Shown piece by piece: positions 10,822 to 63,347 of a stretch of 64,000 nucleotides of DNA (position 1 is the stretch's first letter; each line of letters opens with the position of its first letter). A program made the translations under genes and the position numbers. The stretch comes from an uncultured Patescibacteria group bacterium (GTDB lineage: Bacteria > Patescibacteriota > Minisyncoccia > Phycocordibacterales > UBA918): assembly GCA_934699595.1 (NCBI GenBank), contig CAKUWT010000002.1:37065-101064 (forward strand), written 5' to 3'. The notes below the pieces were generated by a model. It made no database searches. It saw only the letters and a program-made list of their open reading frames with translations, and was not told the origin of the DNA.

Positions 10822-11022
10822 CTAAGCACGAGCGACATTGGTGGCGGCAGGACCTTTTGGGCCTTCCTCAATGTCGAAAGAGACAGCATCCCCCTCGTTA
10901 AGGTCGTCGTAAGCAACGTCAACCACTGATTGGGCATGGAAGAAAACATCCTTGCTACCATCGTCAGGAGTGATAAAGCCGTAGCCGTTATCTTTTTTCA
11001 TGCGGGCAATTTTACCAGTCAT
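10822..11022 (-). CDS. cspA: Cold-shock protein (CspA family)
   Basis: 66 aa with KDNGYGFITPDDGSKDVFFH, characteristic of the cold-shock domain. Confidence 0.9.
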   Translation of the reverse strand: MTGKIARMKKDNGYGFITPDDGSKDVFFHAQSVVDVAYDDLNEGDAVSFDIEEGPKGPAATNVARA

Positions 11023-11205
11023 AATTAATTATTTATTTTTATCTATTAAAACAAAACTTCATCTCCTTAGGTGGTTCTTACATCCTTCCGAGTGAGCGTG
11101 GTTTCGCTGCTGCTATTAAAGCATATTTATAAGCAAAAACAAGTACTCGTGCTTACAAATACTGACTTTTGATGAAAGTTACAAAATAGCTTATATTAAG
11201 AAGTA

Positions 11206-14316: not shown

Positions 14317-14388
14317 GCACCCATGGTGAAATGGATATCACAACTGACTTCGGATCAGTCGTTCTGGGTTCGAGTCCTGGTGGGTGCA
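14317..14388 (+). tRNA. tRNA-Arg(TCG)
   Basis: Folded by hand. The acceptor is GCACCCA/TGGGTGC, the D stem GTGA/TCAC, and the anticodon stem ACTGA/TCAGT with loop CTTCGGA. The T arm is CTGGG-TTCGAGT-CCTGG. No CCA is encoded. Confidence 0.75.
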
Positions 14389-14440
14389 CAATCGTTACTT
14401 AATTTTATTACGTAACAAAACTTCCTAGAGATAATAAAAC

Positions 14441-14635
14441 ATTATTTGGGCAGAAACAGTGTAAAGACACTGTTTCTGAGACTAGTACCACCAGGGCATT
14501 TCTATTTTTATAGTCGGACTATCGTCCTTCTTAAAAATAAGTCAAGCCCGATTGAGATATTTCTAAGGCGACAGCCGAAAGAAATATCCAATTGGGGTAC
14601 TGAACCTGTAAGGTTCGAGTCCTGGTTGGGGTAAA
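14441..14635 (+). repeat. tRNA-associated modular repeat element, copy A, ending in a degenerate copy of the tRNA-Arg 3' half
   Basis: tttgggCAGAAACAGTG-taaaga-CACTGTTTCTG hairpin at 14451-14478. A GATATTT...AAATATC stem-loop at 14556-14588. The end is GGTTCGAGTCCTGGTTGGGG, compared with the tRNA's GGTTCGAGTCCTGGTGGGTGC. Confidence 0.6.
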
Positions 14636-14771
14636 AGCCATTTACCTGGTTCGACTATGGAGGAAGGTCACTTAGTAGATTTGAAATCTCTCAGACGAAC
14701 AAAATATCCACTAGAATGACCGAAGTGGGTGGCTGTGTCCAATTTTTAAAAAATCACTATACTAAAGTATT

Positions 14772-15146
14772 ATGAAACTATACATTATTCCTGGTTTAGG
14801 TGAAAGCCTTGATGATTATCAATGGTTGGTTCTGTCGGGTGAACAACGTGGTTACGAGGTCGAGTTTCTTCCTTGGCAATTACCGGGGAACCTTTTGACC
14901 GAAATTATCAACCGTCCTCTGGTGCCTGGCTCAACAGTTTTTGGCTTCTCCGTCGGGGCTTTGATAGCCTATAAGCTAACAACACCGATGTAAAAAGGTA
15001 TCTATGCATCAATGTCGGAGATCCTTGAGGGCGATATTGAGCCAGTTTTAGATGAGGCGGTAAAGATCTTTGAATTTAAAACAGTTCAAGACTTTCGCTA
15101 CTTAACATATGGTGTACCAAAAGCGACTGAGTGGGTGCAGTTTTAA
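14772..15146 (+). pseudogene. Decayed alpha/beta serine hydrolase paralog of 18726..19334, interrupted by an in-frame TAA
   Basis: The 73-aa ORF has a GFSVGA nucleophile elbow and ends at the TAA at 14991. The same frame continues with ...FEFKTVQDFRYLTY, resembling the C-terminus of the intact hydrolase (KLVTFQDRNHFLL). The total is still too short for the fold. Confidence 0.4.
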
Positions 15147-16106: not shown

Positions 16107-16180
16107 GCGGCCATGGTTAAGTGGTATAACATGTCGTTGCCAACGATAAGTCGAGAGTTCGATTCTCTCTGGCCGCACCA
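16107..16180 (+). tRNA. tRNA-Gly(GCC) with genomically encoded CCA
   Basis: Hand fold. The acceptor is GCGGCCA/TGGCCGC, the D stem GTTA/TAAC, the anticodon loop TTGCCAA, and the T arm GAGAG-TTCGATT-CTCTC. The discriminator A is followed by CCA. Confidence 0.85.
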
Positions 16181-16231
16181 AAAGTGACCTAATCTTATTA
16201 CGTTAGGTATTCTCTATATTAAACAAACTTT

Positions 16232-16368
16232 ATTTGGGCAGAAACAGTCCGGGGGACTGTTTCTGAGAATCGAAGGGTTAGTCAGATATTTTAAGGTCTG
16301 ATAGGTGAACTAAAATATCGATAACCAGCACTGAACCCGTAGAGTCCGATTCCCTCTAGTCGCACCAA
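16232..16368 (+). repeat. tRNA-associated modular repeat element, copy B, ending in a degenerate copy of the tRNA-Gly(GCC) 3' half
   Basis: tttgggCAGAAACAGTC-cggggg-GACTGTTTCTG hairpin at 16239-16265. The 9-bp stem GATATTTTA...TAAAATATC covaries with copy A. The end is GAGTCCGATTCCCTCTAGTCGCACCA, compared with the tRNA's GAGTTCGATTCTCTCTGGCCGCACCA. Confidence 0.6.
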
Positions 16369-17170: not shown

Positions 17171-18117
17171 ACGCAGACATGTTACACGTGTAACTAAAAT
17201 GTCCGAATATTGAGATTTAGGACCAAAATTACGTTTTTATAAAAAACAAACATAAAATAAATGAGGACAGTCCTGCTGATAGTAGATAATTTTGTAATCT
17301 AGTTAAGAGCCAGTCATCTTTTGGGAGTAGAGGCGAGGGTTACACGTGTAACTGAATTCGCAGAAACGTAGGCTAGATTGAGCCGTCTTTGATCAGCACG
17401 CTAGAATAATGGACGTATTTATACCTGCTGGCACTACCTTCTTTAGGTAATTCTCAAAAAAAGAGAAGAAAAGGTTACCGACTGATTGGTCCAGGGCTGC
17501 CGGACTTACTGACTTGGTTAAAAAACTTCGAAATTCTTCTTGATAAACACTGCCTTGGTGCATTGGTTGAGATTACCGCTTAATTATAAGGTGATTTATG
17601 TAGAATTTACCGTTTTAGAAGTAAAAATGTTTCCCATGAAACGGCTTTTAAAAAAATAATACTTATAAATCGATCTTTGGGCAAAGACCTTAAGTCTTTG
17701 TTGGTACAACTTACTCGTTGGAATCAACTTTGGGTCATATTTTTCTAAAAAAGAGGATATAATACTTATTATACGCTGGAGTGCATCAGAAGTTTGGACT
17801 TAAATGCTATTCAGGTGTTACACGTGTAACTGGTTAGATTACAAAAATTCCAGAAACTAGTAGAATCGATATGAAATTTGGCAGAAACCGGTAAAAAACT
17901 GGCAATAACTTCTAATTATCTGTCATGGGGTTAGTTTCACGTGAAATATTTGTCTTGTGAGCTTCAGTTTAAATCTATGAGGGTTTTTGACTGGCGCAAA
18001 AGGTTAAGCAAATGGTGGAGGATTAACTGTTGTTGTATACATAGCGATATGTAATCGAACTGTGCGGTTTCAGCATGGATTGTCGATTTTTTACTTGCTA
18101 TTAAGTGGGTACTAGCC
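17171..18117. repeat. Roughly 950-bp noncoding stretch with no ORF of 60 aa or more, containing repeated 14-bp CACGTG-core palindromes and hairpin repeats
   Basis: GTTACACGTGTAAC occurs at 17181-17194, 17339-17352 and 17817-17830. GTTTCACGTGAAA(t) occurs at 17934-17946, and GTTTCACGTGAAAC lies upstream at 16671-16684. A tttgggCAAAGAC-cttaag-GTCTTTG hairpin sits near 17672-17700. Confidence 0.55.
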
Positions 18118-18390
18118 TGACTATAAAAATAGAAATGTCCTGGCGGTACTGTTCACAGAAACAGTCTCCCAGACTGTTTCTGCCCAGACAGAGTTGCTTC
18201 GCCTCTTAGCGTTAAATTGCTCACTAATATTCAGTAACCTAGATGTCGGGGAGCCGGGAATCGAACTCTACGAGTTCAGTATCCCAATTGGATATTTCCT
18301 TCGGCTGGCGCCTTAGAAATATCTCAATCGGGCTTCGATTCCTCAAGAATAGTCCCCCAGACTATTCTTGCCCAAACAACGTTAGGTTTT
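18118..18390 (-). repeat. tRNA-associated modular repeat element, copy C (minus orientation, split architecture), containing a copy of the tRNA-Pro 3' half
   Basis: On the minus strand, a tttgggCAAGAATAGTC-tgggg-GACTATTCTTG hairpin at 18345-18371 is followed by aatcgaagcccgattgagatatttctaagg and a tRNA-like end GTTCGATTCCCGGCTCCCCGACA at about 18245-18268. That end is identical to the tRNA-Pro 3' end. A second hairpin unit, CAGAAACAGTC-tgggag-GACTGTTTCTG with its agtaccgccaggacatttctatttttatag tail, lies at 18118-18185. Confidence 0.6.
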
Positions 18391-18436
18391 GTATCTGTAG
18401 TTATATGTTACTCACTAATATCCAGTAAGTCACTTG

Positions 18437-18507
18437 TCGGGGAGCCGGGAATCGAACCCGGGCCGCACGGTCCCAAACCGCGTACACTACCATTATGCTA
18501 CACCCCG
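18437..18507 (-). tRNA. tRNA-Pro(TGG)
   Basis: Hand fold of the minus strand. The acceptor is CGGGGTG/CTCCCCG with one T-T mismatch at 6:67. The anticodon loop is TTTGGGA and the T arm CCGGG-TTCGATT-CCCGG. No CCA is encoded. Confidence 0.7.
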
Positions 18508-18725: not shown

Positions 18726-19334
18726 ATGAAACAGGTATTTTTTATTCATGGCGGTAGCGCTTATTCCCGTTATGATGATTTCTTAGAAGCCTTAAAAACT
18801 AAGGAGTTGCGCTCAGTTACTGGAGAGTCCAGTGAGCGCTGGTCGGACAATTTGCGGCGAGATCTGGGTGGGCAGACGGAACTTTTTCAGCCCCGAATGC
18901 CTAATGCTGATAATGCGCAATATCAAGAGTGGCAAATTTGGTTTGAACGACATTTTTCTTATTTACTAGACGGAGTGATCTTGGTCGGCTGGTCTTTGGG
19001 AGGGATGTTCCTTGCTAAGTATTTGTTAGAGAATGATTTGCCGTTCCGTCCGAGCGCGTTGCTGCTCTTGGCGGCTCCTGCCGGAAGTTGTGCAAGCGAA
19101 GTTGGGGAAGATTGTGGCACTTTTCAATTTGATCCAGGCAGAATCGAGGAGTTGGCAACTAAAATGTCCAATATTCAGATTTGGCACTCGGAAGACGATT
19201 TTGTGGTACCTTACGCAGATGCTTTAGTCTATCAGGCGGCACTACCGCAGGCTAAACTGGTGACTTTCCAGGACCGAAACCACTTCTTGCTACCGCAGTT
19301 TCCAGAATTTATTGAAGCTATCCATAGTCTTTAA
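18726..19334 (+). CDS. Alpha/beta-fold serine hydrolase (YdeN/RBBP9-like)
   Basis: 202 aa with a GWSLGG nucleophile elbow and later Asp/His candidates (SEDDFVV, RNHF). Confidence 0.65.
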   Translation: MKQVFFIHGGSAYSRYDDFLEALKTKELRSVTGESSERWSDNLRRDLGGQTELFQPRMPNADNAQYQEWQIWFERHFSYLLDGVILVGWSLGGMFLAKYLLENDLPFRPSALLLLAAPAGSCASEVGEDCGTFQFDPGRIEELATKMSNIQIWHSEDDFVVPYADALVYQAALPQAKLVTFQDRNHFLLPQFPEFIEAIHSL

Positions 19335-22569: not shown

Positions 22570-22640
22570 GCGGGTGTAGTTTAGTGGTAAAACGACTGCC
22601 TTCCAAGCAGTAGTCGGGAGTTCGATTCTTCTCACCCGCA
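22570..22640 (+). tRNA. tRNA-Gly(TCC)
   Basis: Hand fold. The acceptor is GCGGGTG/CACCCGC, the D stem GTTT/AAAC, and the anticodon stem ACTGC/GCAGT with loop CTTCCAA. The T arm is GGGAG-TTCGATT-CTTCT. Confidence 0.8.
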
Positions 22641-22770
22641 CGAGTACAAAAATGAGCGTCCCGTCAGGGCGCCATTTTTGTTCGTGCGGGTGAAGGGAGT
22701 CAACTGCTTGGCTTCCGGGAAGAATCGAAAGGCGGAGCCATGTCGCCTTGCGACAAGTGAGCCGGGGTCG

Positions 22771-22952
22771 AGAACACTTAGTAGATTTGGAGGCGTCAGC
22801 CGAACAAATATACTTAGTGATTCGTGACCGATTCGTATCGCCCTCACTCGCACTAGATGATTTACTAGATATTAAGTAAGTCATAAAACTTTAAATAATT
22901 AACCAAGCACTGTCTGGGGTACTGAGCCCATAAGCTTCGATTCTTCTCAAAC
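22771..22952 (+). repeat. tRNA-associated repeat element, copy D, ending in a degenerate copy of the tRNA-Gly(TCC) 3' half
   Basis: cacttagtagatttgg...cagccgaacaaatatac is also present at 14679-14725. Then ctGGGGTACTGAgcccataaGCTTCGATTCTTCTCAaac ends it, compared with the tRNA's GAGTTCGATTCTTCTCACCCGC. A 5'-like fragment tgcgggtgaaggg lies at about 22684. Confidence 0.5.
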
Positions 22953-22979
22953 AAACCTTCTTACATTAAGATAACCACT

Positions 22980-25261: not shown

Positions 25262-25385
25262 GATTCTCGATAATCAAAGTTGGTTATAATTAAAGCACCC
25301 GCGAGGGCTCATGAGATTAAGGTACACAGCTGTTACCTGAATCAAACTGATAACAAACCTTATCAATAAAAATTTAAGAATCAAT

Positions 25386-25832
25386 ATGATGAAATTAATG
25401 AAAGAACGTGGTTTCACCCTCATCGAACTCTTGGTGGTGATTGCCATTATTGGTATTCTCGCCGCTGTAGTCTTAGCTTCACTTAACGATGCACGTAAGT
25501 CTGGTAATGATGCTGCTCTAAAACAATCGATGGCGTCACTAAGATCACAGGCGGAGATTTTCTATAATGAAAATAGTTTTTCTTACAGCGGTTTCTGTGC
25601 CACCTTGGCTACCGGTCAGCCAAACGCAGCTCTAGCTGCCTCAATTCAGAACAATAGTAACGGGGCAGGTGCTCCTGTGTGTGTGCAAAATACCAGTGGC
25701 ACAGGTTGGGCAACCACAGCTATTATATCTTCAGGTAGAAAGTGGTGTGTAGATAGTACTGGAGTGGCTAGGGATATTGCTGCTGCGGCTACAACCCCTA
25801 CAAATGCGGACCCTACTTGTCCAGCTTCTTAA
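25386..25832 (+). CDS. Type IV major pilin, copy 1
   Basis: 148 aa with the prepilin leader MMKLMKERG followed by FTLIELLVVIAIIGILAAVVL, and C-terminal Cys pairs. Confidence 0.85.
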   Translation: MMKLMKERGFTLIELLVVIAIIGILAAVVLASLNDARKSGNDAALKQSMASLRSQAEIFYNENSFSYSGFCATLATGQPNAALAASIQNNSNGAGAPVCVQNTSGTGWATTAIISSGRKWCVDSTGVARDIAAAATTPTNADPTCPAS

Positions 25833-25854
25833 TTTAGTATAAAAACCAAATAAT

Positions 25855-25884
25855 AAAACAAGACCCGTATCCGGGTCTTGTTTT
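25855..25884 (+). terminator. Rho-independent terminator after pilin 1
   Basis: AAAACAAGACCCG-TAT-CCGGGTCTTGTTTT. Confidence 0.65.
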
Positions 25885-26053
25885 ATTATGATTAACTGTC
25901 CCAGTTATATATACCTAGGAGTTATGCACAGACAAAAATAATTACCATACTGGATATAGAGGTTTCTTGTATACTTAAAAAAGATTAAGGTATACAGCTG
26001 TTACCTGAATCAAACTGATAACAAACCTTATCAATAAAAATTTAAGAATCAAT

Positions 26054-26494
26054 ATGATGAAATTAATGAAAGAACGTGGTTTCACCCTCATCGAACTCTT
26101 GGTGGTGATCGCTATTATCGGTATTCTCGCCGCTGTAGTCTTAGCTTCACTTAATGACGCCCGTAAGTCTGGTAATGATGCCGCTTTGAAACAGTCGATG
26201 GCGTCGGTGCGGTCGCAAGCAGAAATTCATTATAATGAAAATGGCTTTTCTTATGCCACTTTCTGTGACAGTGGTACATTGGCTTCTGCCAATGCAGCCT
26301 TGCGTGATTCTATTAGGAATAATAGCAGCGACAACACTAATCCCGTTTGTACTTCGAGTGCAGATGCCTGGGCGGCCTCAGCTAGGATTTCTGACAATCC
26401 CGGTACTACCGCTCGCTATTGGTGTGTAGATAGTACGGGTGCGGCCAGAGAGGGGACGACTGCTCTAGGATCTAGCGCGACAGTTTGTCCGTAG
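26054..26494 (+). CDS. Type IV major pilin, copy 2
   Basis: 146 aa. The first roughly 60 codons and 71 nt of upstream sequence are near-identical at the nucleotide level to copy 1. The C-terminus is divergent. Confidence 0.85.
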   Translation: MMKLMKERGFTLIELLVVIAIIGILAAVVLASLNDARKSGNDAALKQSMASVRSQAEIHYNENGFSYATFCDSGTLASANAALRDSIRNNSSDNTNPVCTSSADAWAASARISDNPGTTARYWCVDSTGAAREGTTALGSSATVCP

Positions 26495-26510
26495 ACCGCT
26501 AGTCTTGAGG

Positions 26511-26549
26511 AAAACAAAAACCGCCATCTTTGATGGCGGTTTTTGTTTT
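26511..26549 (+). terminator. Rho-independent terminator after pilin 2
   Basis: AAAACAAAAACCGCCATC-TTTG-ATGGCGGTTTTTGTTTT. Confidence 0.65.
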
Positions 26550-26575
26550 CCTAAGTATGTTATTATTTGAGGACA

Positions 26576-27043
26576 ATGAGATTGTGCCAATTACAGCTAG
26601 GTAAACAGCGGGGTTTCACCCTCATCGAACTCTTGGTGGTGATTGCAATTATCGGTATTCTGGCTGCCGTAGTTTTAGCTTCATTAAATAGTGCCCGCAA
26701 ACAAGGGAATGATGCTGCTCTAAAACAATCGATGGCGTCACTAAGATCACAGGCGGAGATTTATTACCTAAGAAGTAATTTTACTTACGACGGTTTCTGC
26801 GACACGTTAACCTCCGGAAAAGTTAATGCGCACTTAGGAGATTCGATTAAGAAAAACAGCAACAACAACACTGCTCCAGTTTGTAATGATGAGGATCAGG
26901 TTTGGGCTGCCTCGGCACAGATATCTCCACAGGGTGTAGTGAGCCGCTATTGGTGTGTAGACAGCACGGGAGTCGCCAAGGAGCAGGCTTCTGCTTTGGC
27001 TGGCATGGCTGGCGCACCCGCGGTCGACACCCAGTGTTTGTAA
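26576..27043 (+). CDS. Type IV major pilin, copy 3 (longer leader peptide)
   Basis: The ATG at 26576 gives MRLCQLQLGKQRG|FTLIELLVVIAIIGILAAVVL. The track's TTG at 26567 is an alternative start. The C-terminal half is divergent. Confidence 0.8.
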   Translation: MRLCQLQLGKQRGFTLIELLVVIAIIGILAAVVLASLNSARKQGNDAALKQSMASLRSQAEIYYLRSNFTYDGFCDTLTSGKVNAHLGDSIKKNSNNNTAPVCNDEDQVWAASAQISPQGVVSRYWCVDSTGVAKEQASALAGMAGAPAVDTQCL

Positions 27044-27045
27044 GC

Positions 27046-27387
27046 CCGGCTTCTTCGGTGCGCTCACAGGCGGAGATTCATTATTTAAAAAATGGTTTCA
27101 CTTACACTAGTTTTTGTAACTCTTTTAACTCCGGCCAAGCAAATTTTCCCTTAGGGCAATCAATTAAGAAAAATAGTTATGCCAATGAAGGAATCGCTTG
27201 TATGGATAGAAATTCTAGCTGGGCTGTTGTTGCTCCGGTGTTACGAGAGGGGGGCGAAGTGAAGGCGTGGTGCGTAGACAGCACTGGCTGGGCGGGGATG
27301 CTGCAGGTTTCAGATAGTTTATATTACTATAATGCCAATATCTTAAAGCCAGACTCATGCCACTCCTTTACTCTTGTTGCCAGTTAG
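27046..27387 (+). pseudogene. 5'-truncated pilin copy lacking start codon, leader and N-terminal helix; a silent-cassette candidate
   Basis: Reading-frame homology begins at ...SVRSQAEIHYLKNGFTY..FC...GQSIKKNS...WCVDSTG, matching the pilin C-terminal domains (compare copy 2 ASVRSQAEIHYNENGFSY and copy 3 GDSIKKNS). It directly abuts the pilin 3 stop and is only read through from an out-of-frame overlap, 26902.. in the track. Confidence 0.6.
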
Positions 27388-57130: not shown

Positions 57131-57225
57131 TCAACAACTTTACGTTGCCTATGTCAACAGAGGAGGGAAGTGTGACATAATAAACTGAACTTAATAGTTA
57201 GTTAAATTAAAATATTATTATTGGT

Positions 57226-57846
57226 ATGACCGTCTCATCTTTCTTCAAAAGCACCGCCCTCCTCGGAATGGTTGCCTTTGGCCTATTAGCCTACAACTTT
57301 ATCCAAGCTTCTTGGACAGCGCCTACAGCGACTCCTCCTGGGGGCAACACTGATAGACCGATTAACGTTGGTAGTATTTATCAAGCTAAGTCTGGTGACC
57401 TTGGTGCTATCCGCATGCGGGCAGGACAGTATTGTAATGCGGCGGGGACGAAGTGTTTTACAGCTGATCAGGTGGAGGGGCTAGTTAAAGCTGGCGGTAC
57501 GGTGACTCCTCCAGGTGGTACACCGACTGACATTTTGCGAAGGGAGAGTGGGCGAGCAACTATTGCTACCGAGTCATACGGTTTTGGGTCACGCAATTCT
57601 GGTACTAGAGCTAAGCCTGTTTCCGTCAGTTTTGGTAAATCATTTACTAGCGTTCCGATGGTGCAAGTCACAACTGCAGATGGTCGCAACCTTGTTGATG
57701 CTCCAGTAGCTGTTTCCCGAACTGGCTTTATAGTGACAATTCCGCAAGACTGCAGCACTTCCACTCACGGCTCGGGTGAGGCCGAGACTACCCGATGTAA
57801 TCCTCGCTACACCGGATCGCTAAACTGGAATGTTATTGGCAATTAA
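57226..57846 (+). CDS. Secreted or anchored protein with an H-type-lectin-like C-terminal domain; paralog 1
   Basis: 206 aa. The first roughly 78 codons are nucleotide-identical to 62505... The C-terminus (VSFGKSFTSVPMVQVTTADG...VSRTGFIVT) resembles the H-type lectin beta-sandwich. Confidence 0.5.
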   Translation: MTVSSFFKSTALLGMVAFGLLAYNFIQASWTAPTATPPGGNTDRPINVGSIYQAKSGDLGAIRMRAGQYCNAAGTKCFTADQVEGLVKAGGTVTPPGGTPTDILRRESGRATIATESYGFGSRNSGTRAKPVSVSFGKSFTSVPMVQVTTADGRNLVDAPVAVSRTGFIVTIPQDCSTSTHGSGEAETTRCNPRYTGSLNWNVIGN

Positions 57847-62504: not shown

Positions 62505-63347
62505 TTGCGTATGACCGTCTCATCTTTCTTCAAAAGCACCGCCCTCCTCGGAATGGTTGCCTTTGGCCTATTAGCCTACAACTTTATCCAAGCTTCTTGG
62601 ACAGCGCCTACAGCGACTCCTCCTGGGGGCAACACTGATAGACCGATTAACGTTGGTAGTATTTATCAAGCTAAGTCTGGTGACCTTGGTGCTATCCGCA
62701 TGCGGGCAGGACAGTATTGTAATGCGGCGGGGACGAAGTGTGTGACTGCCGACGGATTAATTGGTGGTGGCTCAGGGCAGGCAATGGCGATTGGCCGAGT
62801 GGCGATGACTGTTAATGCGGCGGGGAACCTAACTGTTGGTACGGTAACTTTTGATAAACCTTTTGATAAGGTGCCAAAAGTAGTGGCGTCAGTGCAAGAC
62901 GCTTATTACAATGGACCTTGTCGGGGTGACGAAATTATTTTCCGAGTTAATGTCCGTAGTGTATCCAGAACCGGATTTGTAGTAGAGGCCCCGTATGCTA
63001 CTGGTGGTTGTGGAACACGGAGAGTGGTCGGAGCGAGTTGGATAGCTTTGGCAGATGGTGGCGCCAACACCCTTGTGCGCACTTTTAGTGAAAATCAGAT
63101 GAAAAATGCTGTTAAAAAAGAGAATCCATCGGTAGCAACTGCTGACGCCGTACATGACACTCCGGGAAACCGCGCGGCTCTTTGTGAGTCACTATTTCCT
63201 GGCAGTAGCCCTACCAGAGCCACGACAGGATCATTCACTTCCCCTAGTAACAACACAGTTTACACTTTATCGGGCTTTACAGTTTGGACACGGGCGGGTG
63301 CTAGTGGACGTAATGTGACTTTGACTAGTTTGGAGTGTACCAGGTAG
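62505..63347 (+). CDS. Secreted or anchored H-type-lectin-like protein; paralog 2 with a C-terminal extension
   Basis: 280 aa. The 5' about 235 nt and the 13-nt upstream motif agtgtgacataat are identical to paralog 1. A lectin-like core (VTFDKPFDKVPKVVASV...VSRTGFVVE...SWIALADGG) is followed by an extra roughly 90 aa. Confidence 0.5.
   Translation: MRMTVSSFFKSTALLGMVAFGLLAYNFIQASWTAPTATPPGGNTDRPINVGSIYQAKSGDLGAIRMRAGQYCNAAGTKCVTADGLIGGGSGQAMAIGRVAMTVNAAGNLTVGTVTFDKPFDKVPKVVASVQDAYYNGPCRGDEIIFRVNVRSVSRTGFVVEAPYATGGCGTRRVVGASWIALADGGANTLVRTFSENQMKNAVKKENPSVATADAVHDTPGNRAALCESLFPGSSPTRATTGSFTSPSNNTVYTLSGFTVWTRAGASGRNVTLTSLECTR

Follow-up and report, generated by a model that had tools for sequence, protein, structure and literature searches.

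We analysed a 64,000-nt stretch of DNA (the window) from an uncultured Patescibacteria group bacterium (contig CAKUWT010000002.1, positions 37,065 to 101,064) and describe here a family of small structured units that lie behind its tRNA genes. The window contains four tRNA genes, called by both ARAGORN and Rfam. Immediately 3' of every one of them is a non-coding insert of ~150-250 nt that has no open reading frame (ORF) and ends in a copy of the final 21 nt of the tRNA. There are three full copies of the unit (copy A at tRNA-Arg, copy B at tRNA-Gly(GCC), and copy C1 at tRNA-Pro), a partial tandem copy at tRNA-Pro (C2), and a truncated copy at tRNA-Gly(TCC) (D). The layout common to the window copies is hairpin 1, then a long hairpin made of an outer helix (Pa) and hairpin 2 (hp2), then a 6-bp hairpin 3 (hp3), and then a direct repeat of tRNA positions 54-73. 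A variable hairpin (hairpin 0) is found immediately 3' of each window tRNA, before hairpin 1. We refer to the tRNA gene's 3' end as tail1 and to its direct copy at the end of the unit as tail2. The features are:

14317-14389, plus strand: tRNA-Arg(TCG) (ARAGORN, Rfam)
14369-14389, plus strand: tail1, the final 21 nt of tRNA-Arg(TCG), TTCGAGTCCTGGTGGGTGCAC
14394-14416, plus strand: hairpin 0 of copy A (GTTAC...GTAAC), directly behind tRNA-Arg
14451-14478, plus strand: hairpin 1 of copy A, CAGAAACAGTG-taaaga-CACTGTTTCTG, with a TTTGGG prefix
14480-14546, plus strand: 65-nt insertion (GTACCACCAGGGCATTTCTATTTTTATAGTC...), present only in copies A and C2
14547-14596, plus strand: outer helix Pa (CCCGATTG/CAATTGGG) around hp2 (GATATTTCT...AGAAATATC) of copy A
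14602-14616, plus strand: hp3 of copy A, GAACCT-GTA-AGGTTC
14614-14634, plus strand: tail2 of copy A, a direct repeat of tRNA-Arg positions 54-73
16107-16180: tRNA-Gly(GCC) (ARAGORN, Rfam)
16181-16365, plus strand: copy B, 3' of tRNA-Gly(GCC), with hairpin 0, hairpin 1 (16239-16265), degenerate Pa, hp2 and hp3, and tail2 (16345-16365)
18436-18507, minus strand: tRNA-Pro(TGG) (ARAGORN, Rfam)
18245-18435, minus strand: copy C1, 3' of tRNA-Pro(TGG), with hairpin 0, hairpin 1 (about 18344-18370), core, and tail2 (18245-18265)
18046-18244, minus strand: copy C2, the second tandem unit at tRNA-Pro, with a copy of hairpin 0, hairpin 1 (18156-18182), the insertion of copy A, and a degenerate end, GCTGAAACCGCACAGTTCGATTAC
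22570-22641: tRNA-Gly(TCC) (ARAGORN, Rfam)
22642-22855, plus strand: a module of another type ("type 2") between tRNA-Gly(TCC) and copy D, with a terminator (22656-22672), its own core, and a degenerate tail copy (22833-22855)
22856-22955, plus strand: copy D, a truncated type 1 unit 3' of tRNA-Gly(TCC), with hairpin 0 and then a tail copy

Hairpin 1 of copy A is the counterpart of the hairpin 1 found in the rest of the family (GAAAC...CTGGGAG...GTTTC type). In the other copies both arms are altered jointly, to CAGAAACAGTC/GACTGTTTCTG at 16239-16265 and 18156-18182 and to CAAGAATAGTC/GACTATTCTTG at about 18344-18370. The consensus of hp3 is GAAMYY-GTA-RRKTTC, six base pairs with a GTA loop, preceded by GTAC. 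In copy A the final three bases of hp3 are also T54-C56 of the tail copy, and the first 13 nt of tail2 are the same as in tRNA-Arg (15 with the preceding GG); the acceptor part has diverged. Tail2 of copy C1 is identical to tRNA-Pro at 21/21 positions. Copies B and C1 also have an inverted copy of the T loop ("anti2"; AGAATCGAA and GGAATCGAA, respectively), which in copy A is displaced by the 65-nt insertion. In copy D, CTGTCTGGG is fused directly to GTACTGAGCCCATAAGC, hairpins 1 and 2 are absent, and positions 22936-22949 of the tail are identical to tRNA-Gly(TCC). The type 2 module in front of copy D has its own inverted tRNA tail copy, split by an insertion.

An initial annotation, made from the sequence alone, had described two hairpins and a tRNA-like end behind these tRNAs as four copies of one architecture. 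The hairpins can be read in the sequence where they had been placed. The shared architecture holds at tRNA-Arg, tRNA-Gly(GCC) and tRNA-Pro; tRNA-Pro has two tandem units, and the copy at tRNA-Gly(TCC) is a stump behind a module of another type. That description missed hp3, the outer helix Pa, and the inverted copy of the tRNA tail that is found in canonical relatives (below).

The inserts are not chance similarities

The inserts behind the window tRNAs are real and far from what chance would give. The conserved 3' motif ACTGARCYNRTARRNTYCGAKTC occurs four times in the window, compared with 0.01 occurrences expected, and always 3' of a tRNA. Tail copies match their own neighbouring tRNA at 17/20, 16/20, 20/20 and 16/20 positions, which bears out the claim that each tRNA-like end resembles the tRNA beside it. 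We also scored the copies with a covariance model (R1) for which the sequences came mainly from metagenomes, with C1 added. Copies A and B, neither of which entered the model, scored 67.7 bits (14538-14634; E = 2.5e-19) and 53.9 bits (16266-16365; E = 7e-15). Copy C1 (18245-18342, minus strand), which is part of the model, scored 87.4 bits. Copy D at tRNA-Gly(TCC) scored only 13.5 bits because it is a stump. Based on the motif excess, the tail matches, the R1 scores and the tandem units at tRNA-Pro, the original observation is confirmed and its anatomy is corrected.

The units belong to a large family

Outside the window, species-representative genomes were scanned with a pattern for hairpin 1. 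Ten of the 12 matches were chance matches in unrelated phyla. The only relevant genome was a Patescibacteria assembly (loci L005 and L013), which exposed the conserved 3' motif beside tRNA-Ser. A scan of metagenomes with GNRYACTGARMYNRTARRNTTCGANTC then gave at least 120 loci. Among the matches listed, 98 of 132 occurrences of the motif have a tRNA upstream on the same strand, with nearly every isotype represented. They lie about 100-140 nt behind it; the span between the end of the tRNA and the motif is usually 83-145 nt (among the matches listed, ~100 loci). The bases that follow the motif repeat the T loop, the T-stem 3' strand, the acceptor 3' strand and the discriminator of the upstream tRNA. 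The modal length of this direct repeat is 21-24 nt; that is, it runs from T54 to the discriminator plus 1-3 nt.

A search of the loci with R1 gave 87 matches at E <= 0.001 in 64 loci, including copies outside the search pattern. Public metagenomes contain well over 100 members of the family, and "four-copy family", as it had been called, was an understatement. The 3' motif had no match in viral contigs. Rfam 15 at the gathering score found only tRNAs in the window, and a permissive Rfam scan of the canonical copy L030 gave only spurious matches to long hairpins and microRNA-like families. No description of the element family turned up in the literature, whether it was searched by topic or by motif string.

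Canonical units contain an inverted copy of the tRNA tail

We read the canonical anatomy from well-preserved copies (L030, L055, L067, L046 and L090). The tRNA, ending in tail1, is followed by 1-3 nt, a terminator-like hairpin, and an inverted copy of the tail that is interrupted by hairpin 1. Next come a G, Pa with hp2, GTAC, hp3, the direct tail copy (tail2), and often a second terminator. Hairpin 1 splits the inverted tail so that the flank, the discriminator, the acceptor 3' strand and part of the T stem precede it, and the remainder of the T stem, with the T loop (e.g., GGAATCGAA), follows it. In 52/76 units the stretch from the tRNA to the inverted tail includes a T run, consistent with an element that provides the tRNA with a new terminator. 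Together, the tRNA tail, the terminator and the inverted copy make one long palindrome, and in 52/76 units the inverted copy is predicted to pair with 15 or more of the ~21 tail bases.

In 14/15 informative cases, those with a difference between tail1 and tail2, it is tail1 that the inverted copy matches. We therefore gave up the idea of a unit closed by pairing between the inverted tail and tail2. A second reading that we rejected, the T-arm/acceptor mimic of the initial annotation (or a minihelix mimic), is wrong because the segment, which is a direct repeat of tRNA positions 54-73, lacks the T-stem 5' strand. In addition, the inverted tail includes flanking sequence past the discriminator, and therefore derives from DNA and not from a tRNA 5' strand.

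Compared with this anatomy, the window copies are partly decayed family members. They have lost the inverted acceptor part and have a constant TKTYTGGG in its place; the inverted T-loop copy is retained in B and C1; copy A has its insertion and copy D is truncated. Hairpin 0 of copy A occupies the position of the canonical terminator hairpin, without the T run.

Some loci are arrays. In L046, each unit consists of tail(n), terminator, inverted tail(n), hairpin 1 and core; the two cores are 100% identical and the three tails are different. L018 (4639-4997, minus strand) has four tandem minimal units with a period of 88 nt in which hairpin 1 is absent. Successive units there are joined by TTCGAATCC-CGCCA-GGATTCGAA; in this short hairpin, one arm is a T-loop copy and the other its complement.

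Units are patchily distributed and can be stacked

Many tRNA genes lack a unit. Among the other tRNAs on the same contigs, 15/86 have a tail copy within 450 nt downstream, compared with 0/165 in upstream controls. Genomes with the same gene order also differ from one another. The organism of the window is close to that of Candidatus Nomurabacteria L134, and the two have in common the order CCA-adding enzyme, tRNA-Arg, helix-turn-helix (HTH) protein, tRNA-Gly, UPF0102, tRNA-Pro, hydrolase, sigma factor, DUF5667. In the syntenic comparison, the window has units at tRNA-Arg, tRNA-Gly(GCC) and tRNA-Pro; L030 has a unit at tRNA-Gly(GCC) only; and L046 has units at tRNA-Arg only, two of them. L134 has a type 1 unit at tRNA-Arg, two other unit types and a DUF3800 gene at tRNA-Gly, and none at tRNA-Pro. 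These comparisons uphold the expectation that presence and absence should differ at the tRNA 3' boundary. Divergence of the flanks was too great for an exact empty-site junction at tRNA-Pro, window versus L134, to be defined.

Within one genome, the cores found at different tRNAs can be nearly the same, with 94% identity between copies A and C1 in the window and 100% in L046. The cores of the orthologous tRNA-Arg units in the window and L134 are 75% identical. Units occur in tandem at tRNA-Pro in the window and in L018 (the four 88-nt units), L046, L106 and L125. The direct tail repeat brackets the unit much as attL and attR do, and the tRNA remains intact.

Units are also mixed with other inserts that are bounded by tail copies, among them a likely restriction-modification island (L029) and islands with large serine recombinases (below). 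In L029, a cytosine methyltransferase gene and a partner ORF (201-1987), likely the restriction-modification pair, lie just upstream of the unit with a degenerate tail copy between. An IS110-family transposase gene (3-962) lies just upstream of the unit in L024. Type 2 modules are found at L005 (727-930) and L134 (10765-10960) as well as in the window; they follow the same logic with a core unrelated to type 1. L134 has a third module type at 10980-11175. A conserved hairpin, CACTTAGTAGATTTG...CAAATATACTTAGTG followed by GTGACC, is present 3' of tail copies in the window (14669-14715 and 22775-22819), in L134 (2758-2815) and in L112, and looks like part of yet another unit.

The fold is kept while the sequence drifts

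Base pairs in the named helices were counted over an alignment of 72 distinct cores. Overall, 92.6% of the cells were paired, compared with 72.1% in column shuffles, and none of 500 shuffles reached the observed value. Double-sided changes were found in 420 cells, compared with 142 in shuffles, and controls with slid partners were 25-53% paired. Pa and hp2 had covariation at 16/17 pairs. At the hp3 pair 88:96, of which column 96 was free in the search pattern, 43 sequences have A-U, 29 have C-G and none has a mismatch. In L134, hp3 is GCTCCT-GTA-AGGAGC; that is, it is compensated even though the TTC of the T loop is destroyed. Some loops are conserved (YGAG...CGAAR in hp2 and GTA in hp3). The hp2 loop (UGAG...CGAAA) was compared with the hammerhead, K-turn and box C/D motifs; these readings were rejected, and there was no match to an Rfam ribozyme, riboswitch or tRNA-like family.

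These results strongly support the earlier claim of selection on structure. Compensatory change preserves the hairpins, so selection acts on some single-stranded form, RNA or DNA. Drift of the sequence with retention of pairing points to a single-stranded form and counts against palindromic protein sites in duplex DNA. G-T mismatches outnumber A-C mismatches by 41 to 6 in Pa and by 25 to 17 in hp2, so the tRNA-sense strand is mildly favoured as the strand that folds.

The form under selection may be a non-coding structured RNA, transcribed either by read-through of the tRNA or from a start of its own, that serves as a tail mimic or decoy, as a regulator of tRNA maturation, or as a processed small RNA. 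The tail copies would then exist since the RNA must pair with or imitate the tRNA 3' half. The strong covariation of three helices, with an hp2 sequence that drifts freely, is consistent with this, as are the conserved hp2 and hp3 loops, the preference of Pa for G-T wobbles on the tRNA-sense strand, and the very stable predicted fold of the canonical unit L030 (-87.5 kcal/mol, z = -12.9). In addition, orthologous tRNA-Gly(GCC) units hold a tail and an inverted tail that are identical to each genome's tRNA allele. However, we think that such an RNA is unlikely. The terminator-like hairpin with its T run precedes most units (52/76), there is no room for a promoter, and a co-transcribed inverted tail would unfold the tRNA. 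Only a minority of the tRNAs in the same genomes have a unit, and syntenic genomes differ. There is no Rfam match, and many copies, including those in the window, are decayed. The initial annotation had offered tRNA-linked structured RNAs as its alternative to an integrating element. The selection on structure that it invoked holds up, and the RNA reading itself is weakened by the upstream terminators and by the tRNAs that have no element.

Recombinase islands at the same site and a reading of the units as insertion modules

Large serine recombinases, with Resolvase, Recombinase and Zn_ribbon_recom domains, are found at the same site as the units. In 8 of about 120 loci their genes adjoin tail2 or the tRNA 3' end, in convergent orientation. 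These are larger islands and not the units themselves. The gene is convergent against tail2 in L090, L116, L045, L050 and L022, and against the tRNA 3' end in L053 and L117. In L090 (6007-7740) and L022 (12946-14568) the 3' end of the recombinase gene abuts or overlaps the unit tail copy or the tRNA, and likewise in the other five. The last ~15 codons of the L090 recombinase are read from the antisense of tail2 and hp3. None is encoded in the window; those at the eight loci are candidates for the cognate integrase that the initial annotation had proposed to look for.

With moderate confidence, we propose that the units are miniature, non-coding, non-autonomous insertion modules of Patescibacteria that are specific for the segment of tRNA genes from the T loop to the 3' end (positions 54-73) and that are moved in trans. 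An integrating element, one of the possibilities originally raised, fits best because of the exact repeat from T54 to the discriminator, the tandem units, the patchy distribution, and the recombinase islands at the same site. A unit would be moved by a site-specific recombinase acting at the T loop, and the best candidate would be a large serine recombinase of the kind whose islands occupy this site. New units would enter at the tRNA or at a tail copy, that is, by accretion. The conserved hp3, which abuts the presumed crossover point, could be the element-side arm of the attachment site. The hairpin of tail and inverted tail could be a duplex mimic of the target, like folded single-stranded attachment sites. 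The fold would be required in a single-stranded intermediate or in a transcript.

Several points weigh against insertion in trans by such an enzyme. The recombinase is neither encoded in the units nor consistently adjacent to them. No excised form or exact empty site was seen. A recombinase needs only about 50 bp, and therefore the conserved, elaborate fold and the inverted tail are not explained by the simple model. Nor does that model account for one core type with the tails of many tRNAs, and the inverted copy matches the tRNA's own tail and not tail2 (the 14/15 cases above). The evidence for a folding strand is modest, with the G-T excess in hp2 being just 25 to 17. Last, the successive tails in L046 are different tRNA alleles that misfit the 5' half of the present tRNA, which suggests that some events replaced the whole tRNA or used homologous recombination.

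Other ways to place units behind tRNAs

A 229-aa protein with an HTH domain and a LAGLIDADG-like domain is encoded just upstream of several unit-bearing tRNAs. When its C-terminal domain was compared with Pfam and PDB sequences, the HTH part alone matched. This protein may be another selfish or regulatory occupant of tRNA loci. It is also the candidate nuclease in a different explanation, in which the units are by-products of break repair or homing. In that case, cleavage in or next to the tRNA would be repaired from a donor that has a unit, copying the tRNA and unit together and leaving the recipient's old tail downstream; fold-back priming at the terminator would make the inverted tail. We consider this quite unlikely. 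The protein is found at a minority of unit-bearing tRNAs, mostly tRNA-Gly(GCC) in one gene order, and may simply reflect synteny. Its fold match is modest, its C-terminal domain has no sequence-family match, and the catalytic residues are not conserved across the family. Homing also leaves the conserved core and the precise T54 boundary unexplained.

It is conceivable, if distinctly improbable, that the units are a self-targeting mobile nucleic acid. A rod-like single strand of ~150 nt (DNA or RNA) would direct its own cassette-like insertion at tRNA docking sites, with the duplex of tail and inverted tail mimicking or pairing with the T-arm and acceptor segment. The T loop would seed hops between tRNA species, and tails would be re-templated from each target.

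In a related alternative the inverted tail or tail2 is a guide to the tRNA gene, analogous to the omega RNA of TnpB and IscB, IS110 bridge RNAs or the guide RNAs used for homing by CRISPR-associated transposons, or else a Cas1/casposase-like ruler duplicates the tail in the way that CRISPR repeats are copied. A scaffold that is conserved, with a variable tRNA-matching segment of 21 nt after it, and one core type with many tails would suit such a system, as would arrays that consist of a tRNA, repeated tail plus unit, and a final tail. A casposase is known to target the 3' end of tRNA-Pro, with recognition of the T-loop region and a 15-bp duplication (PMC5137440). Nonetheless, we regard a guided system as very unlikely. 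The would-be guide is sequestered by a perfect complement, internal or in the tRNA, and the repeat is 21-24 nt compared with 14-15 bp in casposons. The top clusters of neighbouring genes are other proteins, with a single IS110 transposase (L024), and clustering showed no TnpB, IscB, Cas12, Cas1 or Tn7-like gene beside the units in a screen that was not exhaustive.

That the units are inert scars, either decayed ends of larger islands or ancestral tandem tRNA pseudogenes without function, is extremely unlikely: although the window copies are visibly decayed, larger islands with cargo abut some units, and tRNA 3' ends are known graveyards of integrated elements (PMC5704250), this idea is contradicted and largely refuted by the strong covariation and conserved sequence blocks across metagenomes, and against it are also the uniform size (tRNA end and motif are 83-145 nt apart in most of the ~100 loci listed), the near-identical copies at different tRNAs within a genome, and the lack of any trace of a tRNA 5' half before any tail copy, where in all copies conserved element sequence directly adjoins T54.

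Other features of the window

Between the tRNA-Arg unit and the HTH gene (14772-15146, plus strand) are two short ORFs that resemble fragments of an alpha/beta (serine) hydrolase and are probably a pseudogene. An intact hydrolase of similar type is encoded at 18726-19334. A 244-nt direct repeat (57224-57467 and 62509-62752; 98% identical and 5.3 kb apart) coincides with the starts of the ORFs at 57226-57846 and 62505-63347. At 25314-27290 there are three to four tandem paralogous segments, 64-89% identical, with ORFs of ~150 aa, a local expansion of a gene family.

Implications

Patescibacteria have tiny genomes and, to our knowledge, few recognised mobile elements. Structured units of ~150 nt now appear at a classical tRNA integration site, behind almost every isotype; the public loci number well over 100. 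Mobilisation in trans, if it occurs, would make the units the smallest known hitch-hikers of tRNA-specific recombinases, and they would mark active integration sites and recombinases that could be used in a phylum that is uncultured. Should the fold act as RNA or as single-stranded DNA, the units would be a new class of structured nucleic acid that carries an inverted host tRNA 3' end. In either case, pseudo-tRNA fragments and the long palindromes that arise from the repeats can disturb assembly and tRNA annotation in Patescibacteria metagenome-assembled genomes.

Comparison with known systems

Like miniature inverted-repeat transposable elements (MITEs), the units are small, non-coding, multi-copy, structured and non-autonomous. 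However, they have no element-specific terminal inverted repeats and no short (2-10 bp) target duplication, and their insertion is site-specific. "MITE-like", as the initial annotation put it, is therefore wrong in the strict sense, because the repeat, a piece of the tRNA, has a length of 21-24 bp, and the partner of the inverted repeat is the tRNA and not the element's other end. Analogies with IS200/IS605, IS91, group II introns and retrons were considered and ruled out, since the defining ends, proteins or sizes are lacking.

In the attC sites of integrons and the attP hairpin of the CTX phage, a folded single strand is the recombination site. The units resemble these in that structure is kept while sequence drifts, an inverted repeat remakes the target duplex, and there are cassette-like arrays at a fixed site. 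Unlike attC, the alignment of units lacks the core consensus RYYYAAC/GTTRRRY, a tRNA gene serves as target, and the repeat measures 21-24 nt; an integron integrase was not searched for.

Casposons also target the tRNA 3' end, where the T-loop region takes part in recognition and a 15-bp duplication overlaps the tRNA by 5 bp; they have terminal inverted repeats and carry genes for Cas1 and the polymerase PolB (PMC5137440). The tRNA 3' target, T-loop recognition, long direct duplication and tandem arrangement are points of likeness to casposons and to CRISPR spacer integration. In contrast to casposons, the units have no coding capacity, their repeat is 21-24 nt, and terminal inverted repeats were not seen.

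Cis-mobilizable elements (CIMEs) and accretion have been defined, with CIMEs being decay products of larger elements (PMC5704250). Unlike CIMEs, the units are uniform and conserved, occupy more than 100 loci, and have undergone compensatory evolution.

The nearest documented case is that of the Dehalococcoides islands at ssrA, the gene for transfer-messenger RNA (tmRNA). These islands have a 20-bp repeat, insert in the T loop, and have a conserved motif just upstream of each repeat (McMurdie et al. 2011, PMC3146451). The gene for DsiB, a serine recombinase of the CcrB family of ~540 aa, is on the reverse strand beside attL; islands occur in tandem; and integrase-less units are regarded as cis-mobilizable (PMC3146451). 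Common to both systems are a repeat of ~20 bp, the T-loop boundary, a motif upstream of the repeat (here hp3), and tandem arrays in which some units have no integrase. Here a reverse-strand gene for a serine recombinase of ~540 aa lies beside the repeat in larger islands at 8 of about 120 loci, and not in the units themselves. The Dehalococcoides islands differ in being kilobases long and gene-bearing, with ssrA as the single target. The units, unlike them, are ~150 bp and gene-free, use almost every tRNA isotype, and have a core of three covarying hairpins as well as a copy of the target in inverted orientation. As in site-specific integrative elements of tRNA genes in general, a repeat brackets the unit with the tRNA left intact, and presence differs between genomes; the units, at 130-250 nt and with no ORF, have no integrase of their own. 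Possibly, then, they are a variant of the tRNA-site integrative elements, with a mode of action that may be novel.

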